Below, in pieces: positions 1 through 50,473 of a stretch of 64,000 bases of DNA. Source of the DNA: Eledone cirrhosa (taxonomy: Eukaryota); the NCBI GenBank assembly GCA_964016885.1, contig CAXHJY010001577.1, positions 936 through 64,935 of the forward strand, in the 5' to 3' direction. The notes below the pieces were generated by a model. The model saw only the letters and a program-made list of their open reading frames with translations, made no database searches and had not been told where the DNA came from. Position 1 is the stretch's first letter. Each line of letters begins with the position of its first letter. The position numbers were made by a program, and so were the translations under genes.

Positions 1-2078
1 TATCTCCAAATTATTTGTCGAGCAATATTGGCCATGACTGCTGCTATGGTAGCAGGCAGGCCGCTGTCTTATTAGCAAACCACTTTCCACTGATTGACCT
101 CGATGTCACGTGATTGATTCTTTTTGAATTTGCCACCGACGCAGAGGCAGTGATTTTCTCTATGGCTAGGAATTCAGTCCACGCTTTGCTATTTTCTATC
201 CACTGCATTATTTTATTAATAAGTTTCCAGATTCCACGCTTTCCCTGGATACTTAGATGAGAATAGTCTTCCCTGACGACGGAATGATTCTCTTTGTTTT
301 CTTCGGAAAATATATTTATTCCATTCCAGAAACTAATTAGTTGGAAGTGATATTTTAGTAAGTAAGTTAATTTATAATTTTCTTATTTTACGTCTCTCAT
401 ATTATTGTTCTGCAACCCCATGCGTTGAACCACAAAGTTAGTAAGACAAAAATCTATATATTTGCTAGCATTGATATGCATCTGTATGTATATATATGTT
501 ACTAGATATTAATTCTTTATAATTATCTCCAAATTATTTGTCGAGCAATATTGGCCATGACTGCTGCTATGGTAGCAGGCAGGCCGCTGTCTTATTAGCA
601 AACCACTTTCCACTGATTGACCTCAGATGTCACGTGATTGATTCTTTTGAATTTGCCACCGACTCAGAGGCAGCGATTTCTCTATGGCTAGGAATTCAGT
701 CCACGCTTTGCTATTTTCTATCCACTGAATTATTTTTTAATAAGTTTCCAGAGTCCAACACTTTGCCTGGATACTTAGATGAGAATAGACTTCCCTGACG
801 ACGGAATGATTCTGCATGTTTTCTTCGAAAATATATTTATTCCATTCCAAAAACTAATTAGTTGGAAGTGATATTTAGTAAGTAAGTTAATTTATAATTT
901 CTTATTTTATGTCGTCTCTCATATTATTGTTCTGCAACCCATGCATTGAACCACAAAGTTTGTTACTTGGTATTAAATATTTATATATATGCTAGCATTG
1001 ATATGCAATCTGTATGTATATATATGTTGTTATTCTTTATTTATTATTGTCTCCATATTATTTGTTCGGAGCAATGATTTGGCAATGTAGGCATGAGTGC
1101 TAGCTATGGATAGCAGGCAGGCCGCTGTCTTATTAGCAAACACTGTATTGAATACTTGATGTACGTGACGTGATTGATTCTTTAGATTGCCACCGGACGC
1201 AGAGGCAGTGATTTTCTATGGCTAGGAATTCAGTCCACGCTTCTTTGATATTGGATCTGGGTTGGTATTTGTATTAATAAGTTTCCAGATTCCACGCTTC
1301 CGCTGTGATACTTAGATGAGAATAGTCTTCCCTGACGACGGAATGATTCTCTTTGTTTTTCTTCGGAAATATATTTATTTGTGGGGGTGGGGAGTGTGTG
1401 GAGGTGGTTGGATGAGTGAGTTGGAAGTGATATTTTAGTATGAAGTTATTTTATAGTATTAATATTATGTTATATTTACGTTGTTCTTGTTGGAACCAGG
1501 TAGTTGATCGTTGCTAGCATTGATATGCATTGTCTGTATGTATATATTGTTACTAGATATTTAATTCTTTATAATTATCTCAAATTATTTGTCGAGCAAT
1601 ATGGCCATGACTGATGCTATGGTAAGCATGTGCGCTGTCTTATTAGCAAACCTTTCACTGTTGACATTGACCTCGATGTCCGTGATTGATCTTTTGAATT
1701 TGCACCGACTCAGAGGCAGCGATTTTCTGGTAGGGCTATTCAGTCGCTTTGTATTTTCTAATCCACTGAATTATTTTTTAATAAGTTTCCAGAGTCCACA
1801 CTTTGCCTGGATACTTAGATGAGAATAGACTTCCCTGACGACGGAATGATTCTGCATGTTTTCTTCGGAAAATATATTTATTCCATTCCAGAATCTAATT
1901 AGTTGGAAGTGATATTTTAGTAAGTAAGTTAATTTTGTAATTTTCTTATTTTACGTCTCTCATATTAATGTTCTGCAACCCCCATGCATTGAACCACATA
2001 GTTACTAAGACAAAACCTATATATTTGCTAGCATTGATATGCATCTGTATGTATATATATGTTACTAGATATTAATTA
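1..2078 (+). repeat. Tandem array of ~522-bp HHR-containing unit (family A), ~4 copies, partly error-rich
   Basis: TATCTCCAAATTATTTGTCGAG recurs at 1, ~524, ~1048 and ~1576; copy 3 has many indels; mirror image of 7086-9166. Confidence 0.95.
268..347 (+). ncRNA. Type I hammerhead ribozyme, family A (one per unit)
   Basis: Stem I CTTCC/GGAAG; core CTGACGA (273-279); stem II GGAATG/CATTCC with internal C(TTCG)G hairpin; GAAA (329-332); palindromic stem III AACTAATTAGTT; GUU cleavage triplet. Confidence 0.8.
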
Positions 2079-2079
2079 T

Positions 2080-3865
<1,786 letters not shown>

Positions 3866-4551
3866 TAGCTTCTTGCTAAAACAATCTCTATACGTCTCAT
3901 TTATATTTATACTCGGATTCTTTTCCTAGAGTGCTTAAACTATCTGTGACTAATCCCGGTTTTTTCATAAAAACTGTGATAATTATTGCTATTTTGCTGA
4001 ACTCGTTGTAGAGTTTTTTTCAGAATGTATTTGACTGCTATTTCTTGTAAATAAACATTCACTTCCATCCTGACGTCACTAGCCCCGTTTTTTTCCTCAT
4101 GTGCTTTTTCATAAATACACATGAAGGCGAACTAGCCAGTTTTAGAATTCCCTTTTTCGGACTATATTACTGTGAGAGCCCTGGTTTTCTGTTGAGCTCT
4201 GCTGATGAATGATATTCCAACCGTGACCATCTCCACTGAAAGTTTTCATGAAATAGTCTTTTAAGACTATACAGAGCATTTGATGTTATTCCAAATTGAA
4301 GGATAAGTGTTTCAAACTTTGTTTTATCATGAGTTAAAAGGTCTATAGATTTTTTTTCTTTTTTTTTCTTCTCTTTCCCATGGATTTTACTAAATTCTGT
4401 GGATGAATTTGTATCCTGATTCTCTTTTGAGATGAGTTTGAGTTATTTTTCCTAAATCTTTCGTTAACTACTTTTCCCATCTTGACGTTATAGTCGCATA
4501 TATGTTATAGAATGCCGTTAGCTTCTTGCTAAAACAATCTCTATACGTCTC

Positions 4552-4556
<5 letters not shown>
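3866..4556 (+). mobile_element. Non-coding HHR element family B, ~650-nt unit plus ~38-nt terminal direct repeat
   Basis: TAGCTTCTTGCTAAAACAATCTCTATACGTCTCATTTA at both ends; flanked by (TA)n; homologous to 15612-16273. Confidence 0.8.
4196..4277 (+). ncRNA. Type I hammerhead ribozyme, family B
   Basis: GCTCTG-CTGATGA-ATGA...TCAT-GAAA-TAGTCTT TT AAGACTA-TA-CAGAGC: 6-bp stem I, intact core, 7-bp hairpin stem III. Confidence 0.88.
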
Positions 4557-4590
<34 letters not shown>

Positions 4591-4591
4591 T

Positions 4592-4679
<88 letters not shown>

Positions 4680-5311
4680 ATAAATGAGACGTATAGAGAT
4701 TGTTTTAGCAAGAAGCTAACGGCATTCTATAACATATATGCGACTATAACGTCAAGATGGGAAAAGTAGTTAACGAAAGATTTAGGAAAAATAACTCAAA
4801 CTCATCTCAAAAGAGAATCAGGATACAAATTCATCCACAGAATTTAGTAAAATCCATGGAAAAAATCTATAGACCTTTAACTCATGATAAAACAAAGTTT
4901 GAAACACTTATCCTTCAATTTGGAATAACATCAAATGCTCTGTATAGTCTTAAAAGACTATTTCATGAAAACTTTCAGTGGAGATGGTCACGGTTGGAAT
5001 ATCATTCATCAGCAGAGCTCAACAGAAAACCAGGGCTCTCACAGTAATATAGTCCGAAAAAGGGAATTCTAAAACTGGCTAGTTCGCCTTCATGTGTATT
5101 TATGAAAAAGCACATGAGGAAAAAACGGGGCTAGTGACGTCAGGATGGAAGTGAATGTTTATTTACAAGAAATAGCAGTCAAATACATTCTGAAAAAAAC
5201 TCTACAACGAGTTCAGCAAAATAGCAATAATTATCACAGTTTATGAAAAAACCGGGAGTTAGTTCTAGCATGATCAGTTTTAAGAACGTATAGAGATTGT
5301 TAGAAGAAGCT
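4680..5311 (-). mobile_element. Inverted copy of family B element (HHR at 4937-5018)
   Basis: Reverse complement of 3866-4556; noisy after ~5255. Confidence 0.85.
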
Positions 5312-5312
5312 A

Positions 5313-5348
5313 TTATATATATATATATTAGACTATAGAATTTTTAGC

Positions 5349-5381
<33 letters not shown>

Positions 5382-5386
5382 TATAT

Positions 5387-5448
<62 letters not shown>

Positions 5449-5463
5449 ATATTATATATATAT

Positions 5464-5517
<54 letters not shown>

Positions 5518-5522
5518 ATATA

Positions 5523-5577
<55 letters not shown>

Positions 5578-5676
5578 TATATATATATATTATATATATA
5601 TATATAATATATATATATATATATTATATATATATATATAATATATATATATATATAATATATATATATATATATA

Positions 5677-5744
<68 letters not shown>

Positions 5745-5766
5745 TATATATATATACATATATATA

Positions 5767-5809
<43 letters not shown>

Positions 5810-5847
5810 ATATTATATATATATATATATATTATATATATATATAT

Positions 5848-5879
<32 letters not shown>

Positions 5880-5920
5880 ATTTATATATTATATATATAT
5901 ATATGTTATATATATATATT

Positions 5921-5954
<34 letters not shown>

Positions 5955-6432
5955 TAATATATATATATACTATATATATATTATATATATTATATTCATA
6001 TATATATATAATTATATATATATATTTATATATTATATATATATATATATATATTAATATATATATATACTATATATATATTATATATATATATTCATAT
6101 ATATATATATTATATATATATATTTATATACATACATAAATATATATTATATATATATTATATATATATATTTATATACATACATAAATATATATTATAT
6201 ATATATTATATATATATATTTATATACATACATAAATATATATTATATATATATTATATATATATATATTTATATACATACATATATATATATATTATAT
6301 ATATATATTTATATACATACATATATATATATATTATATATATATATTTATATACATACATATATATATATATTATATATATATATTTATATACATACAT
6401 ATATATATATATTATATATATATATTATATAT

Positions 6433-6471
<39 letters not shown>

Positions 6472-6486
6472 TATTATATATATATT

Positions 6487-6536
<50 letters not shown>

Positions 6537-6589
6537 ATTTATATACATACATATATATATATATTATATATATATATTTATATACATAC

Positions 6590-6620
<31 letters not shown>

Positions 6621-6669
6621 ATTTATATACATACATATATATATATATTATATATATATATTTATTTAC

Positions 6670-6708
<39 letters not shown>

Positions 6709-6714
6709 ATTTAC

Positions 6715-6747
<33 letters not shown>

Positions 6748-6846
6748 ATTTATATACATACATATATATATATTATATATATATATTTATTTACATATTA
6801 TATATATATATATATATCATATATATATATTATATATATATTTATT

Positions 6847-6886
<40 letters not shown>

Positions 6887-6896
6887 ATCTACATAC

Positions 6897-6929
<33 letters not shown>

Positions 6930-7018
6930 ATATATTATATATATATATTTATATACATATATATATATATATATACATACATATATATATATATATATAT
7001 ACATACATACATACATAT

Positions 7019-7085
<67 letters not shown>
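5313..7085. repeat. (TA)n microsatellite
   Basis: Direct inspection. Confidence 0.98.
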
Positions 7086-7086
<1 letters not shown>

Positions 7087-9470
7087 ATAATTAATATCTA
7101 GTAACATATATATACATACAGATGCATATCAATGCTAGCAAATATATAGGTTTTGTCTTAGTAACTATGTGGTTCAATGCATGGGGTTGCAGAACATTAA
7201 TATGAGAGACGTAAAATAAGAAAATTACAAAATTAACTTACTTACTAAAATATCACTTCCAACTAATTAGATTCTGGAATGGAATAAATATATTTTCCGA
7301 AGAAAACATGCAGAATCATTCCGTCGTCAGGGAAGTCTATTCTCATCTAAGTATCCAGGCAAAGTGTGGACTCTGAAACTTATTAAAAAATAATTCAGTG
7401 GATAGAAAATAGCAAAGCGTGGACTGAATTCCTAGCCATAGAGAAAATCGCTGCCTCTGAGTCGGTGGCAAATTCAAAAAGAATCAATCACGTGACATCG
7501 AGGTCAATCAGTGGAAAGTGGTTTGCTAATAAGACAGCGGCATGCCTGCTACCATAGCAGCAGTCATGGCCAATATTGCTCGACAAATAATTTGGAGATA
7601 ATTATAAAGAATTAATATCTAGTAACATATATATACATACAGATGCATATCAATGCTAGCAAATATATAGATTTTGTCTTAGTAACTTTGTGGTTCAACG
7701 CATGGGGTTGCAGAACAATAATATGAGAGACGTAAAATAAGAAAATTATAAAATTAACTTACTTACTAAAATATCACTTCAACTAATTAGTTTCTGGAAT
7801 GGAATAAATATATTTTCCGAAGAAAACAAAGAGAATCATTCCGTCGTCAGGGAAGACTATTCTCATCTAAGTATCCAGGGAAAGCGTGGAATCTGGAAAC
7901 TTATTAATAAAATAATGCAGTGGATAGAAAATAGCAAAGCGTGGACTGAATTCCTAGCCATAGAGAAAATCACTGCCTCTGCGTCGGTGGCAAATTCAAA
8001 AAGAATCAATCACGTGACATCGAGGTCAATCAGTGGAAAGTGGTTTGCTAATAAGACAGCGGCCTGCCTGCTACCATAGCAGCAGTCATGGCCAATATTG
8101 CTCGACAAATAATTTGGAGATAATTATAAAGAATTAATATCGAGTAACATATATATACATACAGATGCATATCAATGCTAGCATATATATAGGTTTTGTC
8201 TTAGTAACTTTGTGGTTCAATGCATGGGGTTGCAGAACAATAATATGAGAGACGTAAAATAAGAAAATTATAAAATTAACTTACTTACTAAAATATCACT
8301 TCCAACTAATTAGTTTTTGGAATGGAATAAATATATTTCCGAAGAAAACATGCAGAATCATTCCGTCGTCAGGGAAGTCTATTCTCATCTAAGTATCCAG
8401 GCAAAGTGTGGACTCTGGAAACTTATTAAAAAATAATTCAGTGGATAGAAAATAGCAAAGCGTGGACTGAATTCCTAGCCATAGAGAAAATCGCTGCCTC
8501 TGAGTCGGTGGCAAATTCAAAAAGAATCAATCACGTGACATCGAGGTCAATCAGTGGAAAGTGGTTTGCTAATAAGACAGCGGCCTGCCTGCTACCATAG
8601 CAGCAGTCATGGCCAATATTGCTCGACAAATAATTTGGAGATAATTATAAAGAATTAATATCTAGTAACATATATATACATACAGATGCATATCAATGCT
8701 AGCAAATATATAGATTTTGTCTTACTAACTTTGTGGTTCAACGCATGGGGTTGCAGAACAATAATATGAGAGACGTAAAATAAGAAAATTATAAAATTAA
8801 CTTACTTACTAAAATATCACTTCCAACTAATTAGTTTCTGGAATGGAATAAATATATTTTCCGAAGAAAACAAAGAGAATCATTCCGTCGTCAGGGAAGA
8901 CTATTCTCATCTAAGTATCCAGGGAAAGCGTGGAATCTGGAAACTTATTAATAAAATAATGCAGTGGATAGAAAATAGCAAAGCGTGGACTGAATTCCTA
9001 GCCATAGAGAAAATCACTGCCTCTGCGTCGGTGGCAAATTCAAAAAGAATCAATCACGTGACATCGAGGTCAATCAGTGGAAAGTGGTTTGCTAATAAGA
9101 CAGCGGCCTGCCTGCTACCATAGCAGCAGTCATGGCCAATATTGCTCGACAAATAATTTGGAGATAATTATAAAGAATTAATATCGAGTAACATATATAT
9201 ACATACAGATGCATATCAATGCTAGCATATATATAGGTTTTGTCTTAGTAACTTTGTGGTTCAATGCATGGGGTTGCAGAACAATAATATGAGAGACGTA
9301 AAATAAGAAAATTATAAAATTAACTTACTTACTAAAATATCACTTCCAACTAATTAGTTTTTGGAATGGAATAAATATATTTTCCAAAGAAAACATGGAG
9401 AATCATTCCGTCGTCAGGGAAGTCTATTCTCATCTAAGTATCCAGGCAAAGCGTGGACTCTGGAAACTTA
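7086..9470 (-). repeat. Family A ~522-bp tandem array, antisense, ~4.6 copies
   Basis: Reverse complement of the unit; first HHR at 7255-7336; two variants alternate. Confidence 0.97.
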
Positions 9471-9475
9471 TAGCA

Positions 9476-10486
9476 AACCACAAAGTTACTAAGACAAAAC
9501 CTATATATTTGCTAGCATTGATATGCATCTGTATGTATATATATGTTACTAGATATTAATTCTTTATAATTATCTCCAAATTATTTGTCGAGCAATATTG
9601 GCCATAACTCCTGCTATGGTAGCAGGCAGGCCGCTGTCTTATTAGCAAACCACTTTCCACTGATTGACCTCGATGTCACGTGATTGATTCTTTTTGAATT
9701 TGCCACCGACGACGAGGCAGTGATTTCTTCTATGGCTAGGAATTCAGTCCACGCTTTGCTATTTTCTATCCACTGAATTATTTTTTAATATGTTTCCAGA
9801 GTCCACGCTTTGCCTGCATACTTAGATGAGAATAGTCTTCCCTGACGACGGAATGATTCTCCATGCTCTCTTCGGAAAATATATTTATTCCATTCCAGAA
9901 ACTAATTAGTTGGAAGTGATAATTTAGTAAGTAAGTTAATTTTGTAATTTTCTTATTTTACGTCTCTCATATTATTGTTCTGCAACCCCATGCATTGAAC
10001 CACAAAGTTACTAAGACAGAACCTATATATTTGCTAGCATTGATATGCATCTGTATGTATATATATATGTTACTAGATATTAATTCTTTATAATTAACTC
10101 CAAATTATTTGTCGAGCAATATTGGCCATGACTGCTGCTATGGTAGCAGGCAGGCCGCTGTCTTATTAGCAAACCACTTTCCACTGATTGACCTCGATGT
10201 CACGTGATTGATTCTTTTTGAATTTGCCACCGACGCAGAGGCAGCGATTTTCTCTATGGCTAGGAATTCAGTCCACGCTTTGCTATTTTCTATCCACTGA
10301 ATTATTTTTTAATAAGTTTCCAGAGTTCACGCTTTGCCTGGATACTTAGATGAGAATAGTCTTCCCTGACGACGGAATGATTCTCCATATTTTCTTCGGA
10401 AAATATATTTATTCCATTCCAGAAACTAATTAGTTGGAAGTGATATTTTAGTAAGTAAGTTAATTTTATAATTTTCTTATTTTACG

Positions 10487-10496
<10 letters not shown>
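9476..10496 (+). repeat. Family A array, sense, ~2 copies, joined head-to-head to the preceding array
   Basis: Orientation switch at GGAAACTTA-TAGC-AAACCACAAAG; ends TTACGTCTCTCATAT into (TA)n. Confidence 0.95.
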
Positions 10497-10528
<32 letters not shown>

Positions 10529-10631
10529 GGTGGCTACCAACTCGTTTTCGAGTCGGCCACTATTTTATATCCATGTAGGAGAACCCCTACCGATGCGCTG
10601 AACAACTGACTTTTTCGTCAAACCAGCGACT

Positions 10632-11036
10632 TGTCCTCTCAACAACCATTATCTTGAAAAAAACTTAGTCTACGAATGTAAAGTTATAACTGACACCAAT
10701 TCCTTTACTTATTTTGGTTCCACTTCCACCTCCTTTAAAGCTTGTCTTTATAATCATCATTCGTCTTTTAAATACCCACTTAAAAGAACCAACACGGCAC
10801 TCTCAGAACTCGCATGGTCCTTGAAAGACAAAAATATTAACTATAACATCTCTTGGAAGAAGGTTTGTTCTGCTTCTTCATACTTGAATAGTTCTCTATC
10901 CAAGACATGCAATCTTTGTTTATGTGAAAATTTTACCATTATATCTAACTTAGATTCTATAATAAATAGACGCACTGACTTGTTTTCTCTCTGCTTGCAT
11001 AAATTCCATAGAACATTCCATAAAGTATACATCTAA
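10632..11036 (+). pseudogene. GIY-YIG endonuclease 3' remnant of a Penelope-like element (Naiad-like)
   Basis: Manual translation CPLNNHYLEKNLVYEC...YFGSTSTSFK...NHHSSF...ALSELAWSLKD continuing into the listed ORF (ISWK...CNLCLCE...INRR...CLH). Confidence 0.85.
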
Positions 11037-12023
11037 TATCTAATACTTTATCAATGTAAAATCCTTTTCTCAAAGACACATATATATACATATATATTTC
11101 TTTAAAAATATACCCATCTCTCTACCTTATTTCAATGTTATTTATTATACATATATAATACTAGTTACTCATTCTATATCACTCCTATTTATCACTTCCC
11201 TTTCTTTCTTTTTTCCTTTTTTATTTTCTTTTTTTATTTTTATTTTAATTTCTAACCCCTAATCTGTACCTTTTCTTCCTAGATACTTCTCAATTATCAT
11301 TGTGCCTAACGTAGAAACAATTATTACTCAGCACAATATATTCTTACTTTATATCACCTTGAAAAAATCCTTCGTAAACATAAACATTTTTTTGACGTTA
11401 GATTATTCATCCTCAATTCATTATTTTTTTCTACCTTTCATGCTCATCTAACTTACACATATTACACTTATTCATCCACTCTTCTACTTCTTTCACAATA
11501 TATCCTTAATTACATTACTATTGCTATATGTTTTATATTTTTTAATAATACATATCAACAATTTCTTTCCATCGCACATATTATTAAACCCTTAAATATT
11601 ATTCTTAATACATATTAACAATTTCTTTTCATCGCACATATTATTAAACCCTTAAATATACAAACCTTAATTTAACATTATTCTAAATCTTTCTCTTCGT
11701 TAATTTTCAAATTCTTTAAATTTATATATTATCTTCCAACGGTTTTTCAACCTCTCTATGTAAAACAATATATTTTTCTCAGCTATAAAAGCTATCTCTC
11801 TCTCTCTATCACTCATCTCTCCTCCTATCTCATCCTTCCTCATTATACTCCTCCCCCTCCACTTTTTACTCTCATCTGCTCCTCTTTTTCATCCTTTCCA
11901 TCCCCCCACCCCCGCCCCTCAATTTTTTCCCAATATCACACATCACTCTAAAACTACTTTTCATATGTTGATTTAAAACTGCACTATTCACAAATGTGTT
12001 TTAACCTTCATATCATGTCTCCC

Positions 12024-12094
12024 TATTTTATCTGACGAAAACGCAAATGTTATTGCATGATGATATTTGTTTCTGAAATGCGCATAATAAAATA
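12024..12094 (+). ncRNA. Type I hammerhead ribozyme at the 3' end (pLTR) of the Naiad-like remnant
   Basis: TATTTTAT-CTGACGA-long stem II-GAAA-TGCGCA-TA-ATAAAATA; palindromic stem III ATGCGCAT. Confidence 0.82.
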
Positions 12095-12125
12095 CATGGA
12101 ACTCTTTTAACCATCTTTTGATCTT

Positions 12126-12195
12126 ATATATTATATATATATATGTATATATATATACATATCTGTATATATATATACATATACATACATATATG

Positions 12196-13032: not shown

Positions 13033-14257
13033 TCTATACTATAAAGCTCACTGCCATATGTAGGTAACAAACTATCCGCCAAACGGCTGGACCAAACAGC
13101 ACCAAATTTGCACCATAGATGTAACTTTTTCTGAATAAATAAGTGATGGTATTGTTGCTTACGGAATTTTGTTAAAAGATTAAAGACATTATTTAAATAT
13201 TCACTTCTTTAAAATTTCACATGTCAACACTTCCGGTTATACGTCATTCCTCACTTTTTTTATGACGTCGCACAGCATTCCTCTATTTTTCTTAGTCTGT
13301 ATGACTGGCTGTCTGCATTAGATAACATTTTTCGAAGTATTTACTTCTGCGTTCACAGACTGATTTTTTCAGTTTCAGAAGATCCCGTTAAGGGTGAAAG
13401 CAGCGATTCTTTGCTTAAACTTTTATCTTTTATTTTAATATATATATTCGTGTACAGATATTTTTTGCATACACAAAAACAAAAGCCTATTTATTTCACG
13501 AAAGCACAGAAGGCTTATCTTCATTGTTACTGTTCGAGGTTAGAAGACCACAATCTTTCCAAGATCTGAGAACCATCAATGGCCATCAATGTTCAACTTA
13601 CCGTTTGGCTTGCCAGATGCGTGGTATGTTACACAATGGCAGCCAGTGGCATCTCACCCTGCAAGAAGCAGCAACTTCTAAAGTCCCTTCTCAGCTGCGA
13701 AAACTGTTATGTTATTATTTTGCACAACTGTGATCTCGCCGACCCTCTCGAGATGTGGAACAACCACCGCGAAAGTCTAACTGAAGACATCCTCCACCGT
13801 ACACGCAGACACAATCCGAACGTAACATACGATATCGTTTCCAACGAGGCGCTCATTTGTCTTGAAAACAGTGTCCTGGAGTTTGGTGGTAGGCCTCTAG
13901 GTCACTACAGCTTATCTGCTTCTGACAGGAGTGTCCAGAATTGAACGTCTACAGAGCTTCCCCGTGAGACGAGCTACGAAATCAGTGATTCTCCCATGGT
14001 CAATTGTATGTAGGATGCTCTAGGGTTAGCTCGCCAAACAATCTCTTCATCTTTGCTCCGGAGTTCCGAACAAAAAATATTGTATACTTTGACGCTCTAA
14101 CAGTGTAATTTAAATATTTTCTGTTACTTGGAATTTCCATTATGGTTGTACAAATTATTGTTTGTTAAAATATGTGTCCTGTTGACAGTTTATTGTTGTA
14201 ACTATCAATTTCCTTTAACGTACTGGCTGCTAGACTGGGGAATACCGGGCCAGCTAG
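13033..14257 (+). mobile_element. Internally deleted Helitron
   Basis: A|TC start, CTAG|T end after a short GC hairpin; Rep-Hel linker fragments (PQSFQDLRTING...YRLAC; DPLEMWNNHRESLTED) and a helicase C-terminal GQLYVGCSRV...KNIVY fragment near 13990-14090. Confidence 0.85.
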
Positions 14258-14272: not shown

Positions 14273-15034
14273 AGTAGAGCCAGATTTGATAGTACACAGG
14301 TATACTATATTTGATTCCAGGCATCTATTCTTTAGTGGGCATTTATCCGGTAGGTGGCAGTTACACTTGGAGGCCTTCCTGTGTGCAGGTTTCCCGTTGC
14401 GGTTCTGTATGTTGTTAGGGGCGGGATGGGATTTAGGTTTACTAGTGTTTTGTTTTGATGTGCCCAGGCGTGCGGACGGTTGTGATGCTGTTATGTGTTT
14501 GCGTTTTGTATTTGGTGCTACGGTGTATGTTGGTAGATTACATTATTTAGAAATTCTTTTATAGTTGATTTTATGTATGTGTGATTCTATATTAGCTGCA
14601 GTAGAGTAAGAGAGTTTGATAGTTTTTCTGTTAAAGATTCTATGGTATTTGTGTAGTTTAGGGAAGTGCTTGTCGATTAATTTAAAGAATTTAGGAGGTT
14701 GGGTGGTTTTTAAGGAAGAGTTGAAAATTGGATTGAACCTTAAATGTTTCCTACCTTGGGGTTTTCTGGAGTTTCTAGAGATCAACATAGTGGTTGGTTT
14801 GGCTATTTCGTGTGTCTGTTGCCTATTTCTATGTTTAGTTCTATATTTGTTACTCCTGTAGGTTCGGGTGGTGCAGTTGTCGTTAGGTTTGTATTTGTAG
14901 TTGCTGTCTCTATCGGGTATGTATTTGAGCCCTTCCTTGTGGCCTGCCTTACATAAAGCTATAACTTCGATTACTACTATCATCAGTGACCGTATTTTTT
15001 TATTATTTTTTATTATTGTTGTTATTGTTTTCAT
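14273..15034 (-). pseudogene. Naiad-like Penelope fragment (RT thumb end, linker, Cys-rich motif, start of GIY-YIG)
   Basis: RFNPIFNSSLKT...FFKLIDKHFP...IFNRKTIKLSYS; manual translation downstream CNCHLPDKCPLKNRCLESNIVY. Confidence 0.85.
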
Positions 15035-15079
15035 TTACTTTATTCTCCAATGTATCTATAATACTTGTGTTATACCCTT

Positions 15080-15194
15080 CAGTATTCCGATGATTTGATC
15101 AGAGACGCACACTGTAATTAAGGTCGAGTGACGTAATTTCTAGCGACCAGTAGCCTTTAGACTCACATGATTAATGAAACAATTGTCAATACTG
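15080..15194 (+). ncRNA. Hammerhead-like motif family D with U4C core variant
   Basis: CAGTATT-CCGATGA-TTTGATCA...TGATTAAT-GAAA-CAATTG-TC-AATACTG: 7-bp stem I, palindromic stem III; homologous arms at 43612-43871. Confidence 0.7.
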
Positions 15195-15240
15195 TAAATA
15201 AATCCTTTTTGTACAGCCGACCATGTTATTCTTCACTCTT

Positions 15241-15278
<38 letters not shown>

Positions 15279-15282
<4 letters not shown>

Positions 15283-15570
15283 AAAAAGAGATGAAATCGA
15301 AAATGCAACTGAAGTCTTATTTTTTTTAAAAATATATATATATTTATTTGGTTCCTTTACCGGTTGTGAGAAAAACCACAGACCCTCCATCTCAACTCAC
15401 CTTTTGAAAAGCAGAAGAACTGCGAAACCGGTAAAGGAACCAAATAAATATATATATATTTAAAAAAAAAATAAGACTTCAGTTGCATTTTCGATTTCAT
15501 CTCTTTTTCTTTATACTTCCACTCGTGTAGGACACCTCGGTTATTTTTCATTTTGTAAAAAAAACCTCAC

Positions 15571-15580
<10 letters not shown>
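15279..15580. mobile_element. Family E HHR element with inverted partial copy; HHR at 15400-15437 (+)
   Basis: 15279-15365 is the reverse complement of 15427-15513; CCTT-TTGAAAA-GCAG AAGAA CTGC-GAAA-CCGG-TA-AAGG. Confidence 0.8.
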
Positions 15581-21059: not shown

Positions 21060-21784
21060 ATAAACGGAAAAAATGAAACGAAATTTTATTTCTCACACTT
21101 AGTACGGCTGTTATTTAAATATAAGTATGTATACGTAGATACATATATTTATACAGACGTACAGTAGTATGTATATATATATACATACATGCACACACAT
21201 ATATATATGTACGTATGGATTCACCGAACATTTATTATAATGCTCGGTGTGTTTAAACAAACAACTCGAATTAAGCCGTACAGTGTCTAGCCACCATCGT
21301 TGCTCATTTGTTCAAAACTGACAAAGGAACGCTGTACTAGTTTCAAGCTTATTAGCTATCGTCAGCAACGTATACCTTCCTGCCAGATGGTTGAACGTCT
21401 GAAAGTATATACTTTCCTTATGCATATTAACGGCTGAGCAGCCTAATTTGCATATCGAGTGAGTTAATCGGCCGGGGTACCGAAAACGATAAACGGAAAA
21501 AATGAAACGAAATTTCATTTCTCACTGATAGTACGGCTGTTACTTAAATATAAGTATGTATACGTACATAAATATATGTATACAGACGTACAGTAGTATG
21601 TATATATACATACATATATGTACGTATGGATTCACCGAACATTTATTATAATGCTCGGTGTGTTTGTAAACAAACAACCCGAATTAAGCCGTACAGTGTC
21701 TAGCAACCAATGTTGCTCATTTGTTCAAAACTGACAAAGGAACGCTGTACTAGTTTCAAGCTTATTAGCTATCGTCAGCAACGT
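21060..21784 (-). repeat. Family F HHR tandem repeat, ~413-430-nt unit, ~1.7 copies; HHRs at 21329-21371 and 21742-21784
   Basis: Minus strand ACGTTG-CTGACGA-TAGCTAATAAGCTT-GAAA-CTAG-TA-CAGCGT occurs twice, 413 nt apart. Confidence 0.85.
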
Positions 21785-24700
21785 ATCCACTGAATTATTT
21801 TTTAATAAGTTTCCAGAGTTCTCGCTTTGCCTGGAAACTTAGACGAGAATAGACTTCCCTGACGACGGAATGTTTCTCAGTATCTTACTCCATTCCAGAA
21901 ACTAATTAGTTGGAAGTGATATTTTAGTAAGTAAGTTAATTTTATAATTTTCTTATTTTACGTCTCTCATATTATTGTTCTGCAACCCCATGCATTGAAA
22001 CACAAAGTTACTAAAACAAAACCTATATATTTGCTAGCATTGATATGCATCTGTATGTATATATATGTTACTAGATATTAATTCTTTATAATTATCTCCA
22101 AATTATTTGTCGAGCAATATTGGCCATGACTGCTGCTATGGTAGTAGGCAGGCCGCTGTCTTATTAGCAAACCACTTTCCACTGATTGACCTCTATGTCA
22201 CGTGTTTGATTCTCTTTAAATTTGCCACAGACGCAGAGGCAGTGATTTTCTCAATGGCTAGGAATTCAGTCCACGCTTTGCTATTTCCTATCCACTGAAT
22301 TATTTTTTAATAAGTTTCCAGAGTCCTCGCTTTGCCTGGAAACTTAGACGAGAATAGACTTCCCTGACGACGGAATGTTTCTCAATATCTTCTTCGGAAA
22401 ATATATTTACTCGATTCCAGAAACTAATTAGTTGGAAGTGATATTTTAGTAAGTAAGTTAATTTTATAATTTTCTTATTTTACGTCTCTCATATTATTGT
22501 TCTGCAACCCCATGCATTGAACCACAAAGTTACTAAGACAAAACCTATATATTTGCTAGCATTGATATGCATCTGTATGTATATATATGTTACTAGATAT
22601 TAATTCTTTATAATTATCTCCAAATTATTTGTCGAACAATATTGGCCATGACTGCTGCTATGGTAGTAGGCAGGCCGCTGTCTTGTAAGCAAACCACTTT
22701 CCACTGATTGACCTCGATGTCACGTGTTTGATTCTCTTTGAATTTGCCACAGACGCAGTGATTTTCTCAATGGCTAGGAATTCAGTCCACGCTTTGCTAT
22801 TTCCTATCCACTGAATTATTTTTTAATAAGTTTCCAGAGTCCTCGCTTTGCCTGGAAACTTAGACGAGAATAGACTTCCCTGACGACGGAATGTTTCTCA
22901 ATATCTTCTTCGGAAAATATATTTACTCGATTCCAGAAACTAATTAGTTGGAAGTGATATTTTAGTAAGTAAGTTAATTTTATAATTTTCTTATTTTACG
23001 TCTCTCATATTATTGTTCTGCAACCCCATGCATTGAACCACAAAGTTACTAAGACAAAACCTATATATTTGCTAGCATTGATATGCATCTGTATGTATAT
23101 ATATGTTACTAGATATTAATTCTTTATAATTATCTCCAAATTATTTGTCGAACAATATTGGCCATGACTGCTGCTATGGTAGTAGGCAGTCCGCTGTCTT
23201 GTAAGCAAACCACTTTCAACTGATTGACCTCGATGTCACGTGTTTGATTCTCTTTAAATTTGCCACAGACGCAGAGGCAGTGATTTTCTCAATGGCTAGG
23301 AATTCAGTCCACGCTTTGCTATTTCCTATCCACTGAATTATTTTTTAATAAGTTTCCAGAGTCCTCGCTTTGCCTGGAAACTTAGACGAGAATAGACTTC
23401 CCTGACGACGGAATGTTTCTCAATATCTTCTTCGGAAAATATATTTACTCGATTCCAGAAACTAATTAGTTGGAAGTGATATATTAGTAAGTAAGTTAAT
23501 TTTATAATTTTCTTATTTTACGTCTCTCATATTATTGTTCTGCAACCCCATGCATTGAACCACAAAGTTACTAAGACAAAACCTATATATTTGCTAGCAT
23601 TGATATGCATCTGTATGTATATATATGTTACTAGATATTAATTCTTTATAATTATCTCCAAATTATTTGTCGAACAATATTGGCCATGACTGCTGCTATG
23701 GTAGTAGGCAGGCCGCTGTCTTGTAAGCAAACCACTTTCCACTGATTGACCTCGATGTCACGTGTTTGATTCTCTTTGAATTTGCCACAGACGCAGTGAT
23801 TTTCTCAATGGCTAGAAATTCAGTCCACGCTTTGCTATTTCCTATCCACTGAATTATTTTTTAATAAGTTTCCAGAGTCCTCGCTTTGCCTGGAAACTTA
23901 GACGAGAATAGACTTCCCTGACGACGGAATGTTTCTCAATATCTTCTTCGGAAAATATATTTACTCGATTCCAGAAACTAATTAGTTGGAAGTGATATTT
24001 TAGTAAGTAAGTTAATTTTATAATTTTCTTATTTTACGTCTCTCATATTATTGTTCTGCAACCCCATGCATTGAACCACAAAGTTACTAAGACAAAACCT
24101 ATATATTTGCTAGCATTGATATGCATCTGTATGTATATATATGTTACTAGATATTAATTCTTTATAATTATCTCCAAATTATTTGTCGAACAATATTGGC
24201 CATGACTGCTGCTATGGTAGTAGGCAGGCCGCTGTCTTGTAAGCAAACCACTTTCCACTGATTGACCTCGATGTCACGTGTTTGATTCTCTTTGAATTTG
24301 CCACAGACGCAGTGATTTTCTCAATGGCTAGAAATTCAGTCCACGCTTTGCTATTTCCTATCCACTGAATTATTTTTTAATAAGTTTCCAGAGTCCTCGC
24401 TTTGCCTGGAAACTTAGACGAGAATAGACTTCCCTGACGACGGAATGTTTCTCAATATCTTCTTCGGAAAATATATTTACTCGATTCCAGAAACTAATTA
24501 GTTGGAAGTGATATTTTAGTAAGTAAGTTAATTTTATAATTTTCTTATTTTACGTCTCTCATATTATTGTTCTGCAACCCCATGCATTGAACCACAAAGT
24601 TACTAAGACAAAACCTATATATTTGCTAGCATTGATATGCATCTGTATGTATATATATGTTACTAGATATTAATTCTTTATAATTATCTCCAAATTATTT

Positions 24701-25581
24701 GTCGAACAATATTGGCCATGACTGCTGCTATGGTAGTAGGCAGGCCGCTGTCTTGTAAGCAAACCACTTTCCACTGATTGACCTCGATGTCACGTGTTTG
24801 ATTCTCTTTGAATTTGCCACAGACGCAGTGATTTTCTCAATGGCTAGAAATTCAGTCCACGCTTTGCTATTTCCTATCCACTGAATTATTTTTTAATAAG
24901 TTTCCAGAGTCCTCGCTTTGCCTGGAAACTTAGACGAGAATAGACTTCCCTGACGACGGAATGTTTCTCAATATCTTCTTCGGAAAATATATTTACTCGA
25001 TTCCAGAAACTAATTAGTTGGAAGTGATATTTTAGTAAGTAAGTTAATTTTATAATTTTCTTATTTTACGTCTCTCATATTATTGTTCTGCAACCCCATG
25101 CATTGAACCACAAAGTTACTAAGACAAAACCTATATATTTGCTAGCATTGATATGCATCTGTATGTATATATATGTTACTAGATATTAATTCTTTATAAT
25201 TATCTCCAAATTATTTGTCGAACAATATTGGCCATGACTGCTGCTATGGTAGTAGGCAGGCCGCTGTCTTGTAAGCAAACCACTTTCAACTGATTGACCT
25301 CGATGTCACGTGTTTGATTCTCTTTGAATTTGCCACAGACGCAGAGGCAGTGATTTTCTCAATGGCTAGGAATTCAGTCCACGCTTTGCTATTTCCTATC
25401 CACTGAATTATTTTTTAATAAGTTTCCAGAGTCCTCGCTTTGCCTGGAAACTTAGACAAGAATAGATTTCCTTGACGACGGAATGTTTCTCTATATCTTC
25501 TTCGGAAAATATATTTACTTCATTCCAGAAACTAATTAGTTGGAAGTGATATTTTAGTAAGTAAGTTAATTTTATAATTTT
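21785..25581 (+). repeat. Family A tandem array, ~7.3 copies of 516/522 bp
   Basis: Unit starts at 22093, 22615, 23131, 23653, 24169, 24685 and 25201; HHR e.g. 22358-22439. Confidence 0.97.
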
Positions 25582-25598
25582 CTTATTTTACGTTTCTC

Positions 25599-25858
<260 letters not shown>

Positions 25859-26221: not shown

Positions 26222-26366
26222 TATATGAAAAGTGTAAGTTTCTACACAAAACGAAGGTTATAGAGAAAATTGAGGTTGGTAATGGCACATGGAATATATA
26301 AGAGACAGAATACTTTTTTGTGAAAAAACATAATTTTATAAGGTAAGAAAATAATAAAGGGTATAA

Positions 26367-26414
26367 AAAATGACCGGTTTCGATGGGTCTGCAAAAGCCA
26401 TCTTTTCAAATGTT
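26367..26414 (-). ncRNA. Hammerhead with U3-A8 covariant core, downstream of the Penelope ORF (probable pLTR)
   Basis: AACAT-TTGAAAA-GATGG...CCATC-GAAA-CCGG-TC-ATTTT; stem I has one mismatch. Confidence 0.65.
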
Positions 26415-26764
26415 GATTAATATTAAGAAAAATTAATAATACGAAGAGTTAAAATTTGAGACTTGAAAATTCAAGTATAAAATTCATTGTGGGATTTCAT
26501 AGCAGTTTTCATCTAGGTAGCAACAACAGGTTGACTGCTGTGTCCCTTTCAGGTAGTGAATGAGAAGTTATTTGGGGTGTGGGTTATTTTATAAAGGTCA
26601 GATTTAGCAATCGCCAGCTGCTGGTCAGTGAGGGGGTGGAAGCAATATACACACACATATATCTTCCTGTGATGGGTAGGAGAGTGGAGCGTGATAGAAA
26701 AGGATTTAGTGCACTTACACCTATATATACACACATACCTTCATCCACACATACATACATATAC

Positions 26765-26807
<43 letters not shown>

Positions 26808-26876
26808 CACACATACATACACACACACATACATATACATACACACATACACACACACACACATATATATACACAT

Positions 26877-26929
<53 letters not shown>

Positions 26930-26968
26930 TATATATACATACACATACATCCAGATACACACATACAT

Positions 26969-27034
<66 letters not shown>

Positions 27035-27642
27035 CCACACATACATACACACACACATATATATATACATACACACATACAAACATACACACACACACAC
27101 ACACACATATATATACACACATACACACACATATATATACACACACACACACACACACGCATATATATATATATATACACATACGCATACATCCAGATAC
27201 CCACATACATACACACACACACACACACACACGCACACACAATACATACATCCACATGCACACACATACTCACACACACACACACACACATACATACACC
27301 CACACACAGAGAAATGGCCTTCAAATATATATATATATATATACATACAGACACATATATTTTTTCCATAATATAAGAAGTTGGGGCAGTGAAATTAAAA
27401 TACAAGTCATTCTGATCACATTGAGTTCTTCATGTAGATTGGGCCCCGCAACCGACAGTGGTGAATTCTGTGTGCGCATATATATATAGATATATGTGTG
27501 TGCACGTGCAGGGTTTAACATGGATGTATTGGTCACACAAAGGCATGGTCTGTCAATGAATAAACCTGATTCTACAGAATTGGTCTCTGGTCTTTAATAG
27601 TAGTGATTCCGTGCGTATGTGTGTTTATATTTTATGACAATT

Positions 27643-29925
27643 CTATTGGGGTGATAACCCGTTTAGTTTTGGTTTAAATTTGTTAAGGAATAGATTTTCT
27701 TTGTTTATTCTTTGTTGTTGTGTGAACGAATCTGAGCACTTGTAGAAGGGGAAGATTTTAAAGTTGGGTAGTGTCATTCCTGCGCAGTTCGCAATATGGC
27801 TGCTCAAGGGGATTTTTCTTGTGTTAGCGTCCCGGATTTGTTGGCGGTGGATGGTCATTCTTTTGCGTAATGAGGTGCCCGTCTGTCCTATGTAGTTGTG
27901 TTTGCACCCACCGCAAGTTATTGCGTAAATCAAGTTCTCCGAGTTGCAGGTGAAATTGTTTTTTACTGTAAATGTTTGGCCATCTTTGAATGTAAATGTT
28001 TGTCCTTCAGTGAGGTAGAGGCACGTTCCACAGTTTGTTCTACCACATTTGGTAACTGTAGGGTTGAGGATTGGTTTGGGTATATTTGGTCCAGTGAGAA
28101 TGCGTTTAAGTGATTTGGGTTGTCTTTTACTTTTAAGGATCTTGTGTGTTTCAAGAATAGACTTAATTTTTACATCTTTAAGTAGGATGGGGAGGTTTTT
28201 GTGTAGGTGATCAAACATTTCGGTATTTCTGGGGTTGAAAGTGGATACATATGGCAGGGTGTTGAGTGTGGTTTTCTGTTTTGGATTGTTAAGTTGATGG
28301 GGATTTAGGTGTTTTGCCCTGTCTATTCCATTGTTGATTATTTCAAGTGGAAAGGCTCTTAAGATAAGGGTGTCTTTTAGTTCCTTTAGTCTTTGCTCCC
28401 GTTTAGGTGGATCTGATACTATGGTACATATACGTTTGGCCAAATTGTAAGGAATGTTAAGTTTTGTATGTTTTGGGTGACTTGATGTGAAAAAGAGGTA
28501 TTGCTTGGAATCTGTGGGTTTATAGAATATATCTGTATCTAATTTCCCGTCTATTACAGAGATGAGAATATCCAAGAAGGCTAATTCCTTAGGATTGGAT
28601 TCCATTGTGAATTGTATGTTATTATCTATGTTGTTTATCATGTTTTTAAACGTAGTAAGTGAGTTCATGTCTTCTTGCCATAGGATAAAGCAGTCGTCTA
28701 GATATCTTTTCCAATTGGCTTTGAGGTGTGTGTGGAAAGAGTCTCCAAATAAGAGAAGGGACTGACTGTATATTTGTTGTTCATGGAATCCCATGACTAG
28801 GTTGGCATATGTGGGTGCTACTTTCGTGCCCATTGCCGTACCTGATACTTGTCTGTATGTTGAACCATTGAATGTGAAGTAGTTATTTTGTAGGATAAAG
28901 CGGAGTCCGTCAGTGATAAAATCTGTGTTGATGCGTGTCGGTATTTCTGATGGGTGTGTGTTAAGCCAGTATTGGACTGCTGTTATTCCATAGTTGTGAG
29001 GTATGTTTGTGTAGAGGTTTATTACGTCAAAGGAGACAAGAATTGTATTTGCACTTACTGTTTTAGGGAGGTGTTTCAGCATGTCAAGGTCATCTCGTAT
29101 GTAGCTCTGTATATGTTGTAGAAAGGGTTTCAGTAGGATGTCCAGAAAGTTGCTAAGTCTGTGGGTTTCACATGTAGGGCCTGCTATAATTGGCCTGAGT
29201 TTTAGGTCTTCTGGTGGTGTTAGTTCAATGTAATTGTTGGTTGAGGTGTCACATGCATCGTTTATGGGTTTACATTTGTGAAGTTTCGGTAAGCCATAAA
29301 AAGAGCTTGTATTGCATTTGAAGTGGCTTATATAGTTAAACTCTTTTGTGGTTAAGCTGTTGCGGTATTTATTCAGTAAGGTCAAAAGGTTCCCCATTGT
29401 TTTGGTGTGTTTGTAGTTTTCTGTTTTTTCATAGTATGTGTTGTTTTCTAAAATGTTAAGTGCGAGGGTCCTATAGTAGTCCGTATTCATAATCACAACA
29501 GTACTGCCTTTATCGACTTCTTTGATAGTTATCTCAGGGTTGTTTCTAAGTGTGAATAATTCTTCCCATTCGTGTGTAGATAGGTTTGATTTCGTGTGTT
29601 TATTTGTAATTTTTTCATAGGGAAAGTTGGTGATGTGTTCGCAGTACGTGTCCAGTGCTTTATTTCTTCCCTTTTGTGGGCAGAAATTGCTTTTATTTCT
29701 AACCAGTGATTCGTCTTCAGTGTTGGTGTCGTTGTGGAAGAATTCCGTTAGTCGCAGCTTTCGGCAGTATTCCATGATGTCATCCTTCATTTCGGGGAAG
29801 TTTGGTTTACGTGGTGTAGGTGTAAATTTCAGGCCCTTACTTAAAATGTTGATTTGTGTGTTGGTTAGAGGTGTCTTTGAGAGGTTGATTATTTTTGGTT
29901 TCTCCTGAGGGGGGGGGGGGGCCAT
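27643..29925 (-). CDS. PLE reverse transcriptase plus GIY-YIG endonuclease (760 aa, uninterrupted)
   Basis: [70 protein letters not shown]; CGRTNCGTC linker; LIYAITC..C...YIGQT. Confidence 0.96.
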
Positions 29926-31023
29926 CGAGTATCCTGGTATTTCAGGCTTTTCCCTAAAAAAGGAATGTAGTTTTGTGTGTGATTATATTTTGTTGGTCTG
30001 TTGCGTGTGGGTCTGTAGCTTGTTGTTTCATGAGGGTGAATGTGATGGTGGGGGTGGTATGTGTTGTGGTTGTTGATGAGCAAGGGTTCTGTTGTTGGTT
30101 CATGTGGTCTGGGTGCGTTATTTCTGTGGTACAGAGTGTTGAGGCTGGGGGGTTGTCTTTTGTTGGATTGAGGGTGATGTCTGGTGTGGTTGTGGGTAAG
30201 TTCTGTTGTGATTTCAAGTGGCCTGGGTGGATTTCTTCTGAGGAATGTGGTGTGTGTGTTGTGAGTTGGATCTATGTTATTTCGTCGTTGGTTTATGTAG
30301 GGGGCATTTCTACGGAAACCTGTGTTGTGGTGGTTGGGTGTGTTTCTTTTGGTGTAGTTGGCCGTATTTGGTTTGTGTTGGTGGGGGATGTGCCTGTGGT
30401 TAGTGTGTGTTGGGTTTGGTGGTGTAAATGTGTCTGTTGTAGTTCTTGTTATGTTCAAATGCTTTATAAAGGGGTTACCTGTTTGGTGCGTCCTTTTAAA
30501 GTCTTCTTCATATTTGAGGAACCAGTTTTCGGATTTTTCCCACCGTTTAAGGGAAATAGTTTCTGCATTCTCGCAGTCCTGTTTCCACGATTTGATTAAA
30601 TTTTGTAGGGTTGTTCCCTCGGCCTTTTTAGTGCATTCTTCCTCCATATTTTTATCAGTATCCTTATACACTTGCTCGTTTGAGGTGGCCCTTAATTTTA
30701 GGAGTTCTATTTCCATGTTTATACTGTTGAGTGACATTTGTTCACGGAGTTTTCTTTCTGGTTCAGGTTCGTTTGTAATATGCTTTATTTGGAATTTACG
30801 TGGTAAAACTATCGGTGTTGAGTTAATCCATTTTTGGTAAATTCCAGCTTTGTTGAGGTTTTTTATCATATTCCAGAAAGTGAATTTTCTGGTTTTTAGA
30901 TGTTTTTTCCAGAGGTGTCCCATTTGGTTTTTGATATGGAGCAATGTCGTTTGTTCTGTGTTGGTATTCATAAGTTTTTCGATGGAGTTGCATACGTTTT
31001 GAACGTTTAAATAAATTTGGTTG
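29889..31023 (-). CDS. PLE upstream ORF1 (helical region, then H/N/P/T/R-rich low-complexity tail), overlapping ORF2; first non-repeat Met at 30971
   Basis: Non-microsatellite part of the 641-aa ORF; LPRKFQ motif; ends ...PFLGKS... Confidence 0.75.
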
Positions 31024-31852
<829 letters not shown>

Positions 31853-32837: not shown

Positions 32838-33178
32838 CAACAACTATATCAACAACTATATCAACAACTATAGAATATATGTATATATATATATATACAT
32901 ATATATACATATTTATAGAATATATGTATATATATATATATACATATATATACATATTTATATACATATTTCCTCTCCCAATCAGCATAATCAACCACAC
33001 AAAAAACCAATTAAACCACGCTATAGGATTAAAAGACACCTATGAAGAAATAATAGATAAATAAACGACAGCTATCTATTCGCGATCAACAACTATAGAA
33101 TATTTACCCAGTATTTCTAATAGCACGTGGAAATCAATTAAATATATCGTCAACCATACACATATATATATATATATA

Positions 33179-41685: not shown

Positions 41686-41735
<50 letters not shown>

Positions 41736-43168: not shown

Positions 43169-43233
<65 letters not shown>

Positions 43234-43404
43234 ATAACAAGGTATTGTTTAAGGTAATCCAACTAGAGGTTGTGAGTAATCTGTGTTGAGGAAAGTTTAA
43301 ACGTACGACGTTGTTTGACTCAACAAGAAGTTTCCTTAGTTAGGTGGCGAGTTAAAGAGAATTCTCATGCAGATGGTTCCTGGAGTAATAATAGTGAAAT
43401 AATA

Positions 43405-50430: not shown

Positions 50431-50471
<41 letters not shown>

Positions 50472-50473
<2 letters not shown>

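Follow-up and report, generated by a model that had tools for sequence, protein, structure and literature searches.

How do two copies of one repeat come to lie head to head, with both of their 3' ends in TA repeats? The question is raised by a 64,000-nt stretch of the Eledone cirrhosa genome (assembly GCA_964016885.1, contig CAXHJY010001577.1, positions 936 to 64,935; hereafter, the window), which belongs to a 65-kb contig, C1604, in a genome of 3.0 Gb, and in which (TA)n is abundant. At position 9472 of the window, two inverted arrays of a hammerhead-containing repeat, family A, meet to form the A/A pair (Table 1). A first-pass annotation of the window listed six such antisense-then-sense junctions and proposed that both ends of a break in (TA)n prime reverse transcription on separate RNAs and that the cDNAs then join internally. 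All six junctions are present, with their outer ends at (TA)n. We find that the two arms of such insertions meet head to head, that one arm has a short and the other a long outer end, that the arms share a source, and that their junctions are enriched in microhomology. The reading we prefer, with a probability of about two in three, is that a paired reverse transcriptase-endonuclease of a Penelope-like element (PLE) cuts both strands of the TA tract and primes from both DNA ends, with the arms sharing a source.

Outer ends of the inverted pairs

The type I hammerhead cores of the A/A pair are on the minus strand in the left arm (7330-9417) and on the plus strand in the right arm (9842 and 10366), so that the 5' ends of the arms meet and the 3' ends face TA. 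Each family A monomer has one core, whose stem II is long and whose stem III is short and palindromic. The outer end of the left arm is the long, tailed site (L) at monomer position 522, and this arm is 5' truncated at position 218. The outer end of the right arm is the short site (S) at position 402, 118-120 nt upstream of L. Families A and H consist of non-coding tandem monomers with a type I hammerhead motif in each, as in non-LTR retrozymes. The cores in families A and H and the U3-A8 variants discussed below were read directly from the sequence. An Rfam scan of the window gave no hammerhead among the best 150 of 265 matches, which were microRNA-like matches on hairpins and TA repeats. The family A and H monomers fold no better than shuffled sequence; poor fold scores are expected for hammerheads with a short palindromic helix III (PMC4209133).

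Orientation is non-random genome-wide. Among 37 family A loci chosen by monomer similarity alone, 25 have a direct head-to-head arrangement (26 joints), 12 are single-armed, and none has a direct tail-to-tail joint. Counting seven hammerhead-oriented families in loci L001-L037 and L040-L179 and in the window, we found 117 direct head-to-head and 0 direct tail-to-tail joints, together with 3 tail-to-tail and 1 head-to-head arrangements across TA; 104 of the 117 joints are from family A and were mostly fetched via TA ends, which biases against tail-to-tail at the fetched end. The 5'-truncated inverted copy at the 5' end is the layout of PLEs.

The first-pass annotation described both 3' ends as pointing into (TA)n, which is correct, but missed that the outer ends are unequal: all six of the junctions that it named are S+L, allowing for a later insertion in the long arm of the D/D pair. 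To count partners, we took genome matches to each family A end (monomer position 402 for S and 522 for L) in listed order, skipping those already fetched. The 71 S-anchored ends have an L partner in 35 cases and an S partner in none; 2 end 16 nt past L, 2 run off, 20 join TA directly, and 12 join other sequence. The 71 L-anchored ends have an S partner in 47 cases and an L partner in none, with 2 odd ends, 13 joined to TA, 8 joined to other sequence, and 1 unresolved. By our own arithmetic, the chance that 35 of 35 S-anchored partners are L at even odds is ~3e-11. After removal of duplicates, 78 of 84 A pairs are S+L, with no S+S and no L+L pair; the remaining 6 comprise 2 that end 16 nt past L, 2 off-locus, and 2 odd pairs. 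Most anchored A ends (88 of 142) belong to two-armed insertions.

The window also contains a young copy of an autonomous element. Its frame (27643-29982, minus strand, 779 aa from stop to stop) encodes a reverse transcriptase (RT) with a C-terminal GIY-YIG domain. RVT_1 scored above the cut-off; Pfam GIY-YIG gave no match, and the GIY-YIG motifs were read by eye in the translation. GIY-YIG is present in 50-58% of the members of the nearest Atlas clusters. From these features, we class the element as an endonuclease-containing (EN+) PLE. The CX2-5CxxC linker, CCHH, and DKG motifs of the Neptune clade, as defined in PMC8557442, were also read by eye, and "Neptune-like" is a label by motifs rather than by an RT tree. 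The 3' region has a U3-A8 hammerhead-like motif, and the S and L ends are 36 nt apart. Dozens of copies with 99-100% protein identity mark the family as young. In all copies read, the 3' region (window 27310-26720, minus strand) includes a long mixed TG/TA microsatellite.

In the Neptune-like family, 49 of 49 resolved pairs are S+L (19 distinct pairs from 60 short loci and 30 from 40 longer stretches; the other 10 of these stretches show a single end, and in the longer stretches every end not continuing into the tail was scored as "S"). The 76 pairs of 17 unselected bystander families comprise 69 L+S, 7 S+S, and 0 L+L pairs; family M alone contributes L+S in 21 of 22 pairs. Three of the seven S+S pairs are L arms with an internal TA run (L013, L118, and L151), and two are unclear (L081 and L129). 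At Hydra-type loci, a tailed partner is present at 8 of 15 and an S partner at 0 of 15. Many unselected families have the same pair of ends, with tails of ~35-137 nt and a hammerhead 50-200 nt upstream of S. The tail is at one end only; against the 30-40 bp described for PLEs, its length is 36 nt in the Neptune-like family, ~35 nt in H, 118 nt in A, and up to ~165 nt in D. Exact end matches (1016 S and 370 L in family A; 81 S and 937 L in the Neptune-like family) vary with the strictness of the pattern and should not be read as an S:L ratio.

At 4 of 16 Hydra-type S ends (L290, L332, L334, and L337), 1-3 extra copies of a 7-9-nt unit precede the TA tract, which fits an RT that re-primed several times and would be reminiscent of repeat addition by telomerase.

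S+L pairs could also form if both arms started at L and the endonuclease re-cut one of them at a TA-like S site during resolution, with loss of the tail, an idea derived from PMC8557442, which proposes EN-mediated resolution as the origin of tails. S sites are TA-like in every family read, and the internal S site in the minus arm of the D/D pair was later split by another element (43401-43610, with a short flanking duplication read from the sequence). Failed re-cuts should, however, leave L+L pairs, and there are none in family A, the Neptune-like family, or the bystander families. Moreover, the RT itself starts at both tail boundaries in vitro (PMC11167929), and the repeated start units at Hydra-type S ends fit re-priming at S. 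We consider re-cutting very unlikely.

Source and joining of the two arms

In family A, the two arms of an insertion differ by a median of 1.6%, compared with 4.3% to other loci (p=6e-9; 57 of the 77 pairs overlapped enough to be compared). This difference is about that between neighboring monomers within one arm (2.3% vs 2.1%, 33 pairs, p=0.13). A variant private to one locus is common to both arms in 13 of 55 pairs vs 0.9% of shuffled pairs. Since age might account for part of this similarity, we ran the haplotype test in the young Neptune-like family, in which several haplotypes with ~1% divergence coexist and 34 of the 49 pairs are informative. The arms agree at all shared polymorphic sites in 33 of these 34 pairs, and shuffling gave a mean of 18.5 disagreements with a minimum of 9 in 20,000; the one pair that disagrees, L299, has a complex joint, and its S arm is more diverged. 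The within-pair difference is also smaller than the between-locus difference in bystander families M (12/16), G (7/7), P (4/6), and N (2/4). These comparisons show, at the level of sequence, that the arms of one insertion share a source copy. Two private variants occur in both focal A/A arms, an indication that these arms come from different monomers of one source array. The monomers of the left A arm (7082-9471) alternate, with the second and fourth from the L end differing at 1 of 458 sites and the others by 2-4%; this may reflect a dimer template or a later duplication.

The shared source contradicts the earlier proposal of separate RNAs as a general rule; judging by these data, separate RNAs would be needed only for the minority of cross-family pairs. 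The most informative of these pairs is L290, in which an L arm of the Neptune-like family (189 bp, with 2 mismatches in 187 relative to young copies) meets a Hydra-type arm of 3.0 kb whose outer end is the S site of that family. Both families are young, and the Hydra-type 3' end is identical in 40 copies among the matches listed. Based on the motif definitions in PMC8557442, the CxCX5C linker, the lack of CCHH, the CxxC and CxH motifs, and the (TA)n target assign the partner to the Hydra clade. L290 suggests that two RNAs can sometimes serve one event; alternatively, it may represent an insertion beside an existing copy. The cross-family pairs kept after inspection (L036, L072, L077, L085, L290, and those at window positions 21784 and 54029) are all L+S; L178, whose label is doubtful, may be an L+L exception. 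The rate is one clear case per 60 anchored Neptune-like ends. An automatic census gave 24 cross-family candidates (16 L+S, 5 S+S, and 3 L+L), many of which proved not two-armed or mislabeled on inspection; its library was contaminated, with A sequence in pool J. In four three-piece insertions (L003, L033, L131, and L169), one arm starts in one family and continues in another, which is compatible with template jumps between two RNAs.

Cross-family pairs (L290, L072, L077, L085, L036, and window 21784) are what would be expected if two independent RNA-protein particles, drawn from the pool in the cell, generally primed the two ends of a break. Germ cells that express one source locus at a time would also give matching arms under such a scheme. 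Against this stand the rarity of cross-family pairs and the haplotype match in 33 of 34 young pairs, although several haplotypes were young together; moreover, independent particles do not explain the constant S at one end and L at the other. As a general rule, we find this scheme quite unlikely.

The claim that two ends prime independently fared better, as the outer ends are fixed, overlap the TA target by a few bases, and behave independently. Arm lengths in family A are uncorrelated (rho -0.01), and the lengths preclude derivation of either arm from the other in 33 of 77 pairs; thus, one arm is not simply copied from the other. Both arms exceed 2 kb in L308, L312, and L315. These observations bear on self-priming or strand switching, in which the primed cDNA folds back, or switches to antisense RNA or free cDNA, as envisaged in PMC3846280. 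Such a process accounts for the shared source, and palindromes at inverted junctions are reported in PMC3846280. Some joints here lie in hairpins, and 29 of 154 family A 5' ends cluster in the hammerhead stem II region (monomer 270-310) vs 15.7 expected, a region that was picked after seeing the data and is partly affected by alignment ends in the variable loop. A fold-back copy must, however, lie within the other arm, which length forbids in the 33 of 77 pairs; 10 of 77 L arms are too short to include the S site; and the 5' ends of the two arms are mostly at unrelated monomer positions. The version with an antisense template still requires a fixed stop at S or L and attachment to TA; a variant with pre-made free cDNA may be envisaged. 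Overall, we regard self-priming as unlikely. The near-obligate S+L pairing together with the shared source excludes simple fold-back copying and random two-particle models.

The inner joints support the proposed internal joining of cDNAs. Microhomology of at least 3 nt is present at 13 of 35 flush joints vs 26 of 342 simulated joints (p=6e-6). Inserted letters occur at 38 of 73 joints vs 43% of simulated blunt joints and are not interpretable. The hammerhead cleavage site is read through by 70 of 77 S arms and 57 of 77 L arms of family A, which argues for a template that is an uncleaved tandem RNA or a re-ligated circle. In locus L070, an A pair interrupts the internal TA tract of a family F copy, and both flanks are collinear with uninterrupted F copies, as would be expected for a single insertion event; an empty-site search in the genome gave 8 of 158 matches, of which L070 alone was convincing.

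The 9472 junction and its surroundings

We also considered whether inverted pairs could be fold-back artefacts of long reads or assembly. C1604 does start with a fold-back: its first 5.5 kb are mirrored by the next 5.5 kb around a center in the TA tract near window position 4600, so that window 1 to ~4600 is a fold-back of 4600-9166, with identity dropping from 934/934 to 904/998 toward the center. This fold-back is probably an assembly artefact that duplicates A and B copies, and we ignored the tail-to-tail B pair there for this reason. The exact 9472 junction is confined to C1604, where it is present once in the window and once in the mirror copy at the contig start; with reads mapped to 8900-11200, no listed read or contig bridges 9472. 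On the other hand, this junction is asymmetric, with a filler that matches elsewhere in the monomer, and is thus not the product expected of a simple fold-back. The filler and its neighbors match monomer positions 73-83, which are reachable from position 428 via a common 6-mer, and we infer a templated jump. More generally, joints lack symmetry, the two arms differ both in sequence and in the type of end, and chromosome-sized contigs also contain pairs. Logan contigs of the public run X1 have their own, separate minus-to-plus joints at other monomer positions; with short sides of 22-28 letters, they are weak alone. We consider an artefactual origin of the pairs extremely improbable.

Table 1. 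Inverted pairs and associated features, in positions of the window.
Feature	Position	Strand	Description
A/A minus arm	7082-9471	-	~4.6 copies of the 522-bp hammerhead monomer, family A
A/A filler	9472-9475	+	4 nt between two family A arms
A/A plus arm	9476-10496	+	~2 family A monomers
(TA)n tract at S end of A/A	10493-10523		
TA-rich tract at L end of A/A	2077-7089		includes center of probable contig fold-back near 4600
E/E pair	15280-15577		minus arm 15280-15365 (S end), plus arm 15359-15577 (L end, tail ~63 nt)
J/A cross-family pair	21063-25602		J minus arm (L end 21063) meets A plus arm (S end 25602) at ~21784
Autonomous Neptune-like PLE	26227-31024	-	young copy
H/H pair	33170-35789		310-bp hammerhead monomer; minus arm 33170-34734 (S end), plus arm 34731-35789 (L end)
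Family M pairs	41570-41687 and 50839-51039		both S+L; absent from the first-pass annotation
D/D pair	43232-43873		minus arm L end 43232 (tail ~165 nt), plus arm S end 43873
T/T pair	50471-50814		minus arm S end 50471, plus arm L end 50814, tail ~86 nt
Mixed pair	53826-54329		E minus arm with L end, followed by a short plus-strand piece of E and a family G plus arm with S end
R/R pair	63370-63783		minus arm L end 63370, plus arm S end 63783, tail ~40 nt

The remaining five junctions differ in how firmly their polarity can be read. In the H/H pair, canonical hammerhead cores face outward, the arms are 99.7-100% identical, the tail is ~35 nt, and the joint has a 4-nt AATA overlap. Family E is oriented by a U3-A8 hammerhead variant, described in PMC4209133, which is present in 32 of 39 copies and lies near 15404 on the plus strand in the E/E pair. 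The hammerhead core is degenerate in families D and R, with a degenerate hammerhead-like core in both arms of the R/R pair, and an intact core was found in 0 of 11 family T copies; for these three families, polarity therefore rests mainly on the fixed outer and variable inner ends. The D/D joint is at about 43746-43756 and the R/R joint at about 63601-63610. The T/T junction, placed at ~50630 by the first-pass annotation, exists, but its position is 50643-50645.

Other parts of the window contain related sequences. At 10524-12131, a very high-copy short repeat (minus strand, read depth >30,000 in two runs) adjoins the 3' part of a Hydra-type PLE, whose hammerhead is at 12032 and whose S end is at 12131. 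At 14275-15243, a minus-strand PLE open reading frame fragment is severed at a TA tract and lies head to head with a D plus arm near 14975. A repeated stretch at the inner end of an A arm (59739-59849) is similar to the repeats at Hydra-type S ends. Fragments at 37100-39350 and 13570-13944 presumably derive from a Helitron helicase, and those at 58264-59250 from what we take to be a mariner-type transposase.

Two-ended priming and known systems

In the mechanism that we favor, two GIY-YIG domains would cut both strands of a TA tract, and each 3' DNA end would pair with 3-8 nt of AU-rich RNA, with one subunit starting at S and the other at L. The templates would be one uncleaved tandem or circular RNA, or sibling RNAs of one transcript. 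Both cDNAs would halt at random points, and host end-joining would link their 3' ends via short microhomology or templated filler. Occasionally, the enzyme would carry, or jump to, the RNA of another family, giving a cross-family pair; in single-armed insertions, the second end would have been joined without priming, or an arm lost later between TA tracts. A precedent is provided by a PLE protein that in vitro cuts and extends both strands, starts at two tail-defining sites, is predicted to form a dimer, and uses unprocessed RNA (PMC11167929).

Several observations weigh against this mechanism. No second arm is present at 33 of the 142 anchored A ends, and two bystander pairs, L012 and L095, look like true S+S. 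The focal A/A arms differ by ~3% in every register; in-register A arms are no more alike than out-of-register arms (14/30, p=0.73); and the lengths of L arms have no clear pile-up at 120 nt in a stall test. There is thus no positive sign of one RNA stretch being read twice, and because in-register comparisons are no closer than out-of-register ones, one RNA and sibling RNAs are inseparable by sequence. Some of the arm similarity could come from gene conversion between inverted arms, and neither target geometry nor target-site duplications can be read inside (TA)n. Finally, in PMC11167929, the choice of start site is equal on both strands, and the start site is not homologous to the cut DNA, whereas the ends described here overlap TA. 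Taking both sides into account, we consider two-ended priming likely.

More tentatively, priming could be programmed, with an asymmetric dimer tying one subunit to S and the other to L of one tandem or circular RNA, and with roles conserved across PLE clades, as L290 might suggest; this is possible, with the odds somewhat against it. If true, double priming would be how PLEs normally integrate, and not an accident, as it is in L1; pseudo-long terminal repeats (pLTRs), tails, and inverted repeats would then have a common explanation. The origin of the tandem and inverted repeats and of the tails of PLEs is named as an open question in PMC8557442, and the later steps are unvalidated in PMC11167929. 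S+L pairing and the shared source give numerical predictions for the existing in vitro system, and the young, near-identical autonomous families of this genome could serve as substrates.

The layout itself is known for PLEs; what is new here is the counts, with near-obligate S+L pairing, and the haplotype test. We found no paper on obligate S+L pairing or a shared-source test among titles and abstract openings, and older papers on PLE structure or supplements may state the pairing. The first-pass annotation was right to link the junctions to the inverted pLTR of Penelope, and the same layout of inverted pLTR plus tail is found here also in non-coding retrozymes. PMC8557442 describes an inverted truncated copy, a tail at one end, and TA targeting in PLEs, and PMC3846280 describes head-to-head as the commonest PLE arrangement together with a self-priming model. 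The EN+ PLEs of these two papers resemble the pairs here in the 5'-truncated inverted copy directly at the 5' end, placed head to head and often with a one-sided tail. The (TA)n targets of the Naiad and Hydra clades and the 36-nt tail of the Neptune-like family are further points of likeness. They differ in that the layout is described there as "often" or "optional" and is near-obligate here, with one S and one L over ~20 families, and in the tails of 35-165 nt, the shared source haplotype, the possibility of both arms exceeding 2 kb, and the cross-clade pairs that keep the rule.

The metazoan non-LTR retrozymes (PMC7229834; bioRxiv 10.64898/2026.07.22.740005) are also non-coding tandem monomers, like those of A (522 bp) and H (310 bp), with type I hammerheads and a proposed PLE origin; a term search of the main texts of these two papers found no inverted insertion or tails. 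Paired hammerheads on opposite strands, 100-700 bp apart, are described in Schistosoma (PMC4209133). PAc, the Poseidon element of Anolis in PMC11167929, is alike in its two RT start sites that are the tail boundaries, in the cutting and extension of both strands, in the predicted dimer, and in the use of unprocessed RNA. It differs in having no strand-specific allotment of start sites in vitro, where each end here uses its own site, and in start sites without target homology, where the ends here overlap TA by a few bases. In L1 twin priming (bioRxiv 10.1101/2024.08.27.596794), both target ends likewise prime, microhomology joins the cDNAs, and the product is head to head. However, L1 uses poly(A) and a chance internal site on one RNA, whereas here both sites are fixed per family, poly(A) is absent, the arms have overlapping sequence, and two-armed insertions predominate.

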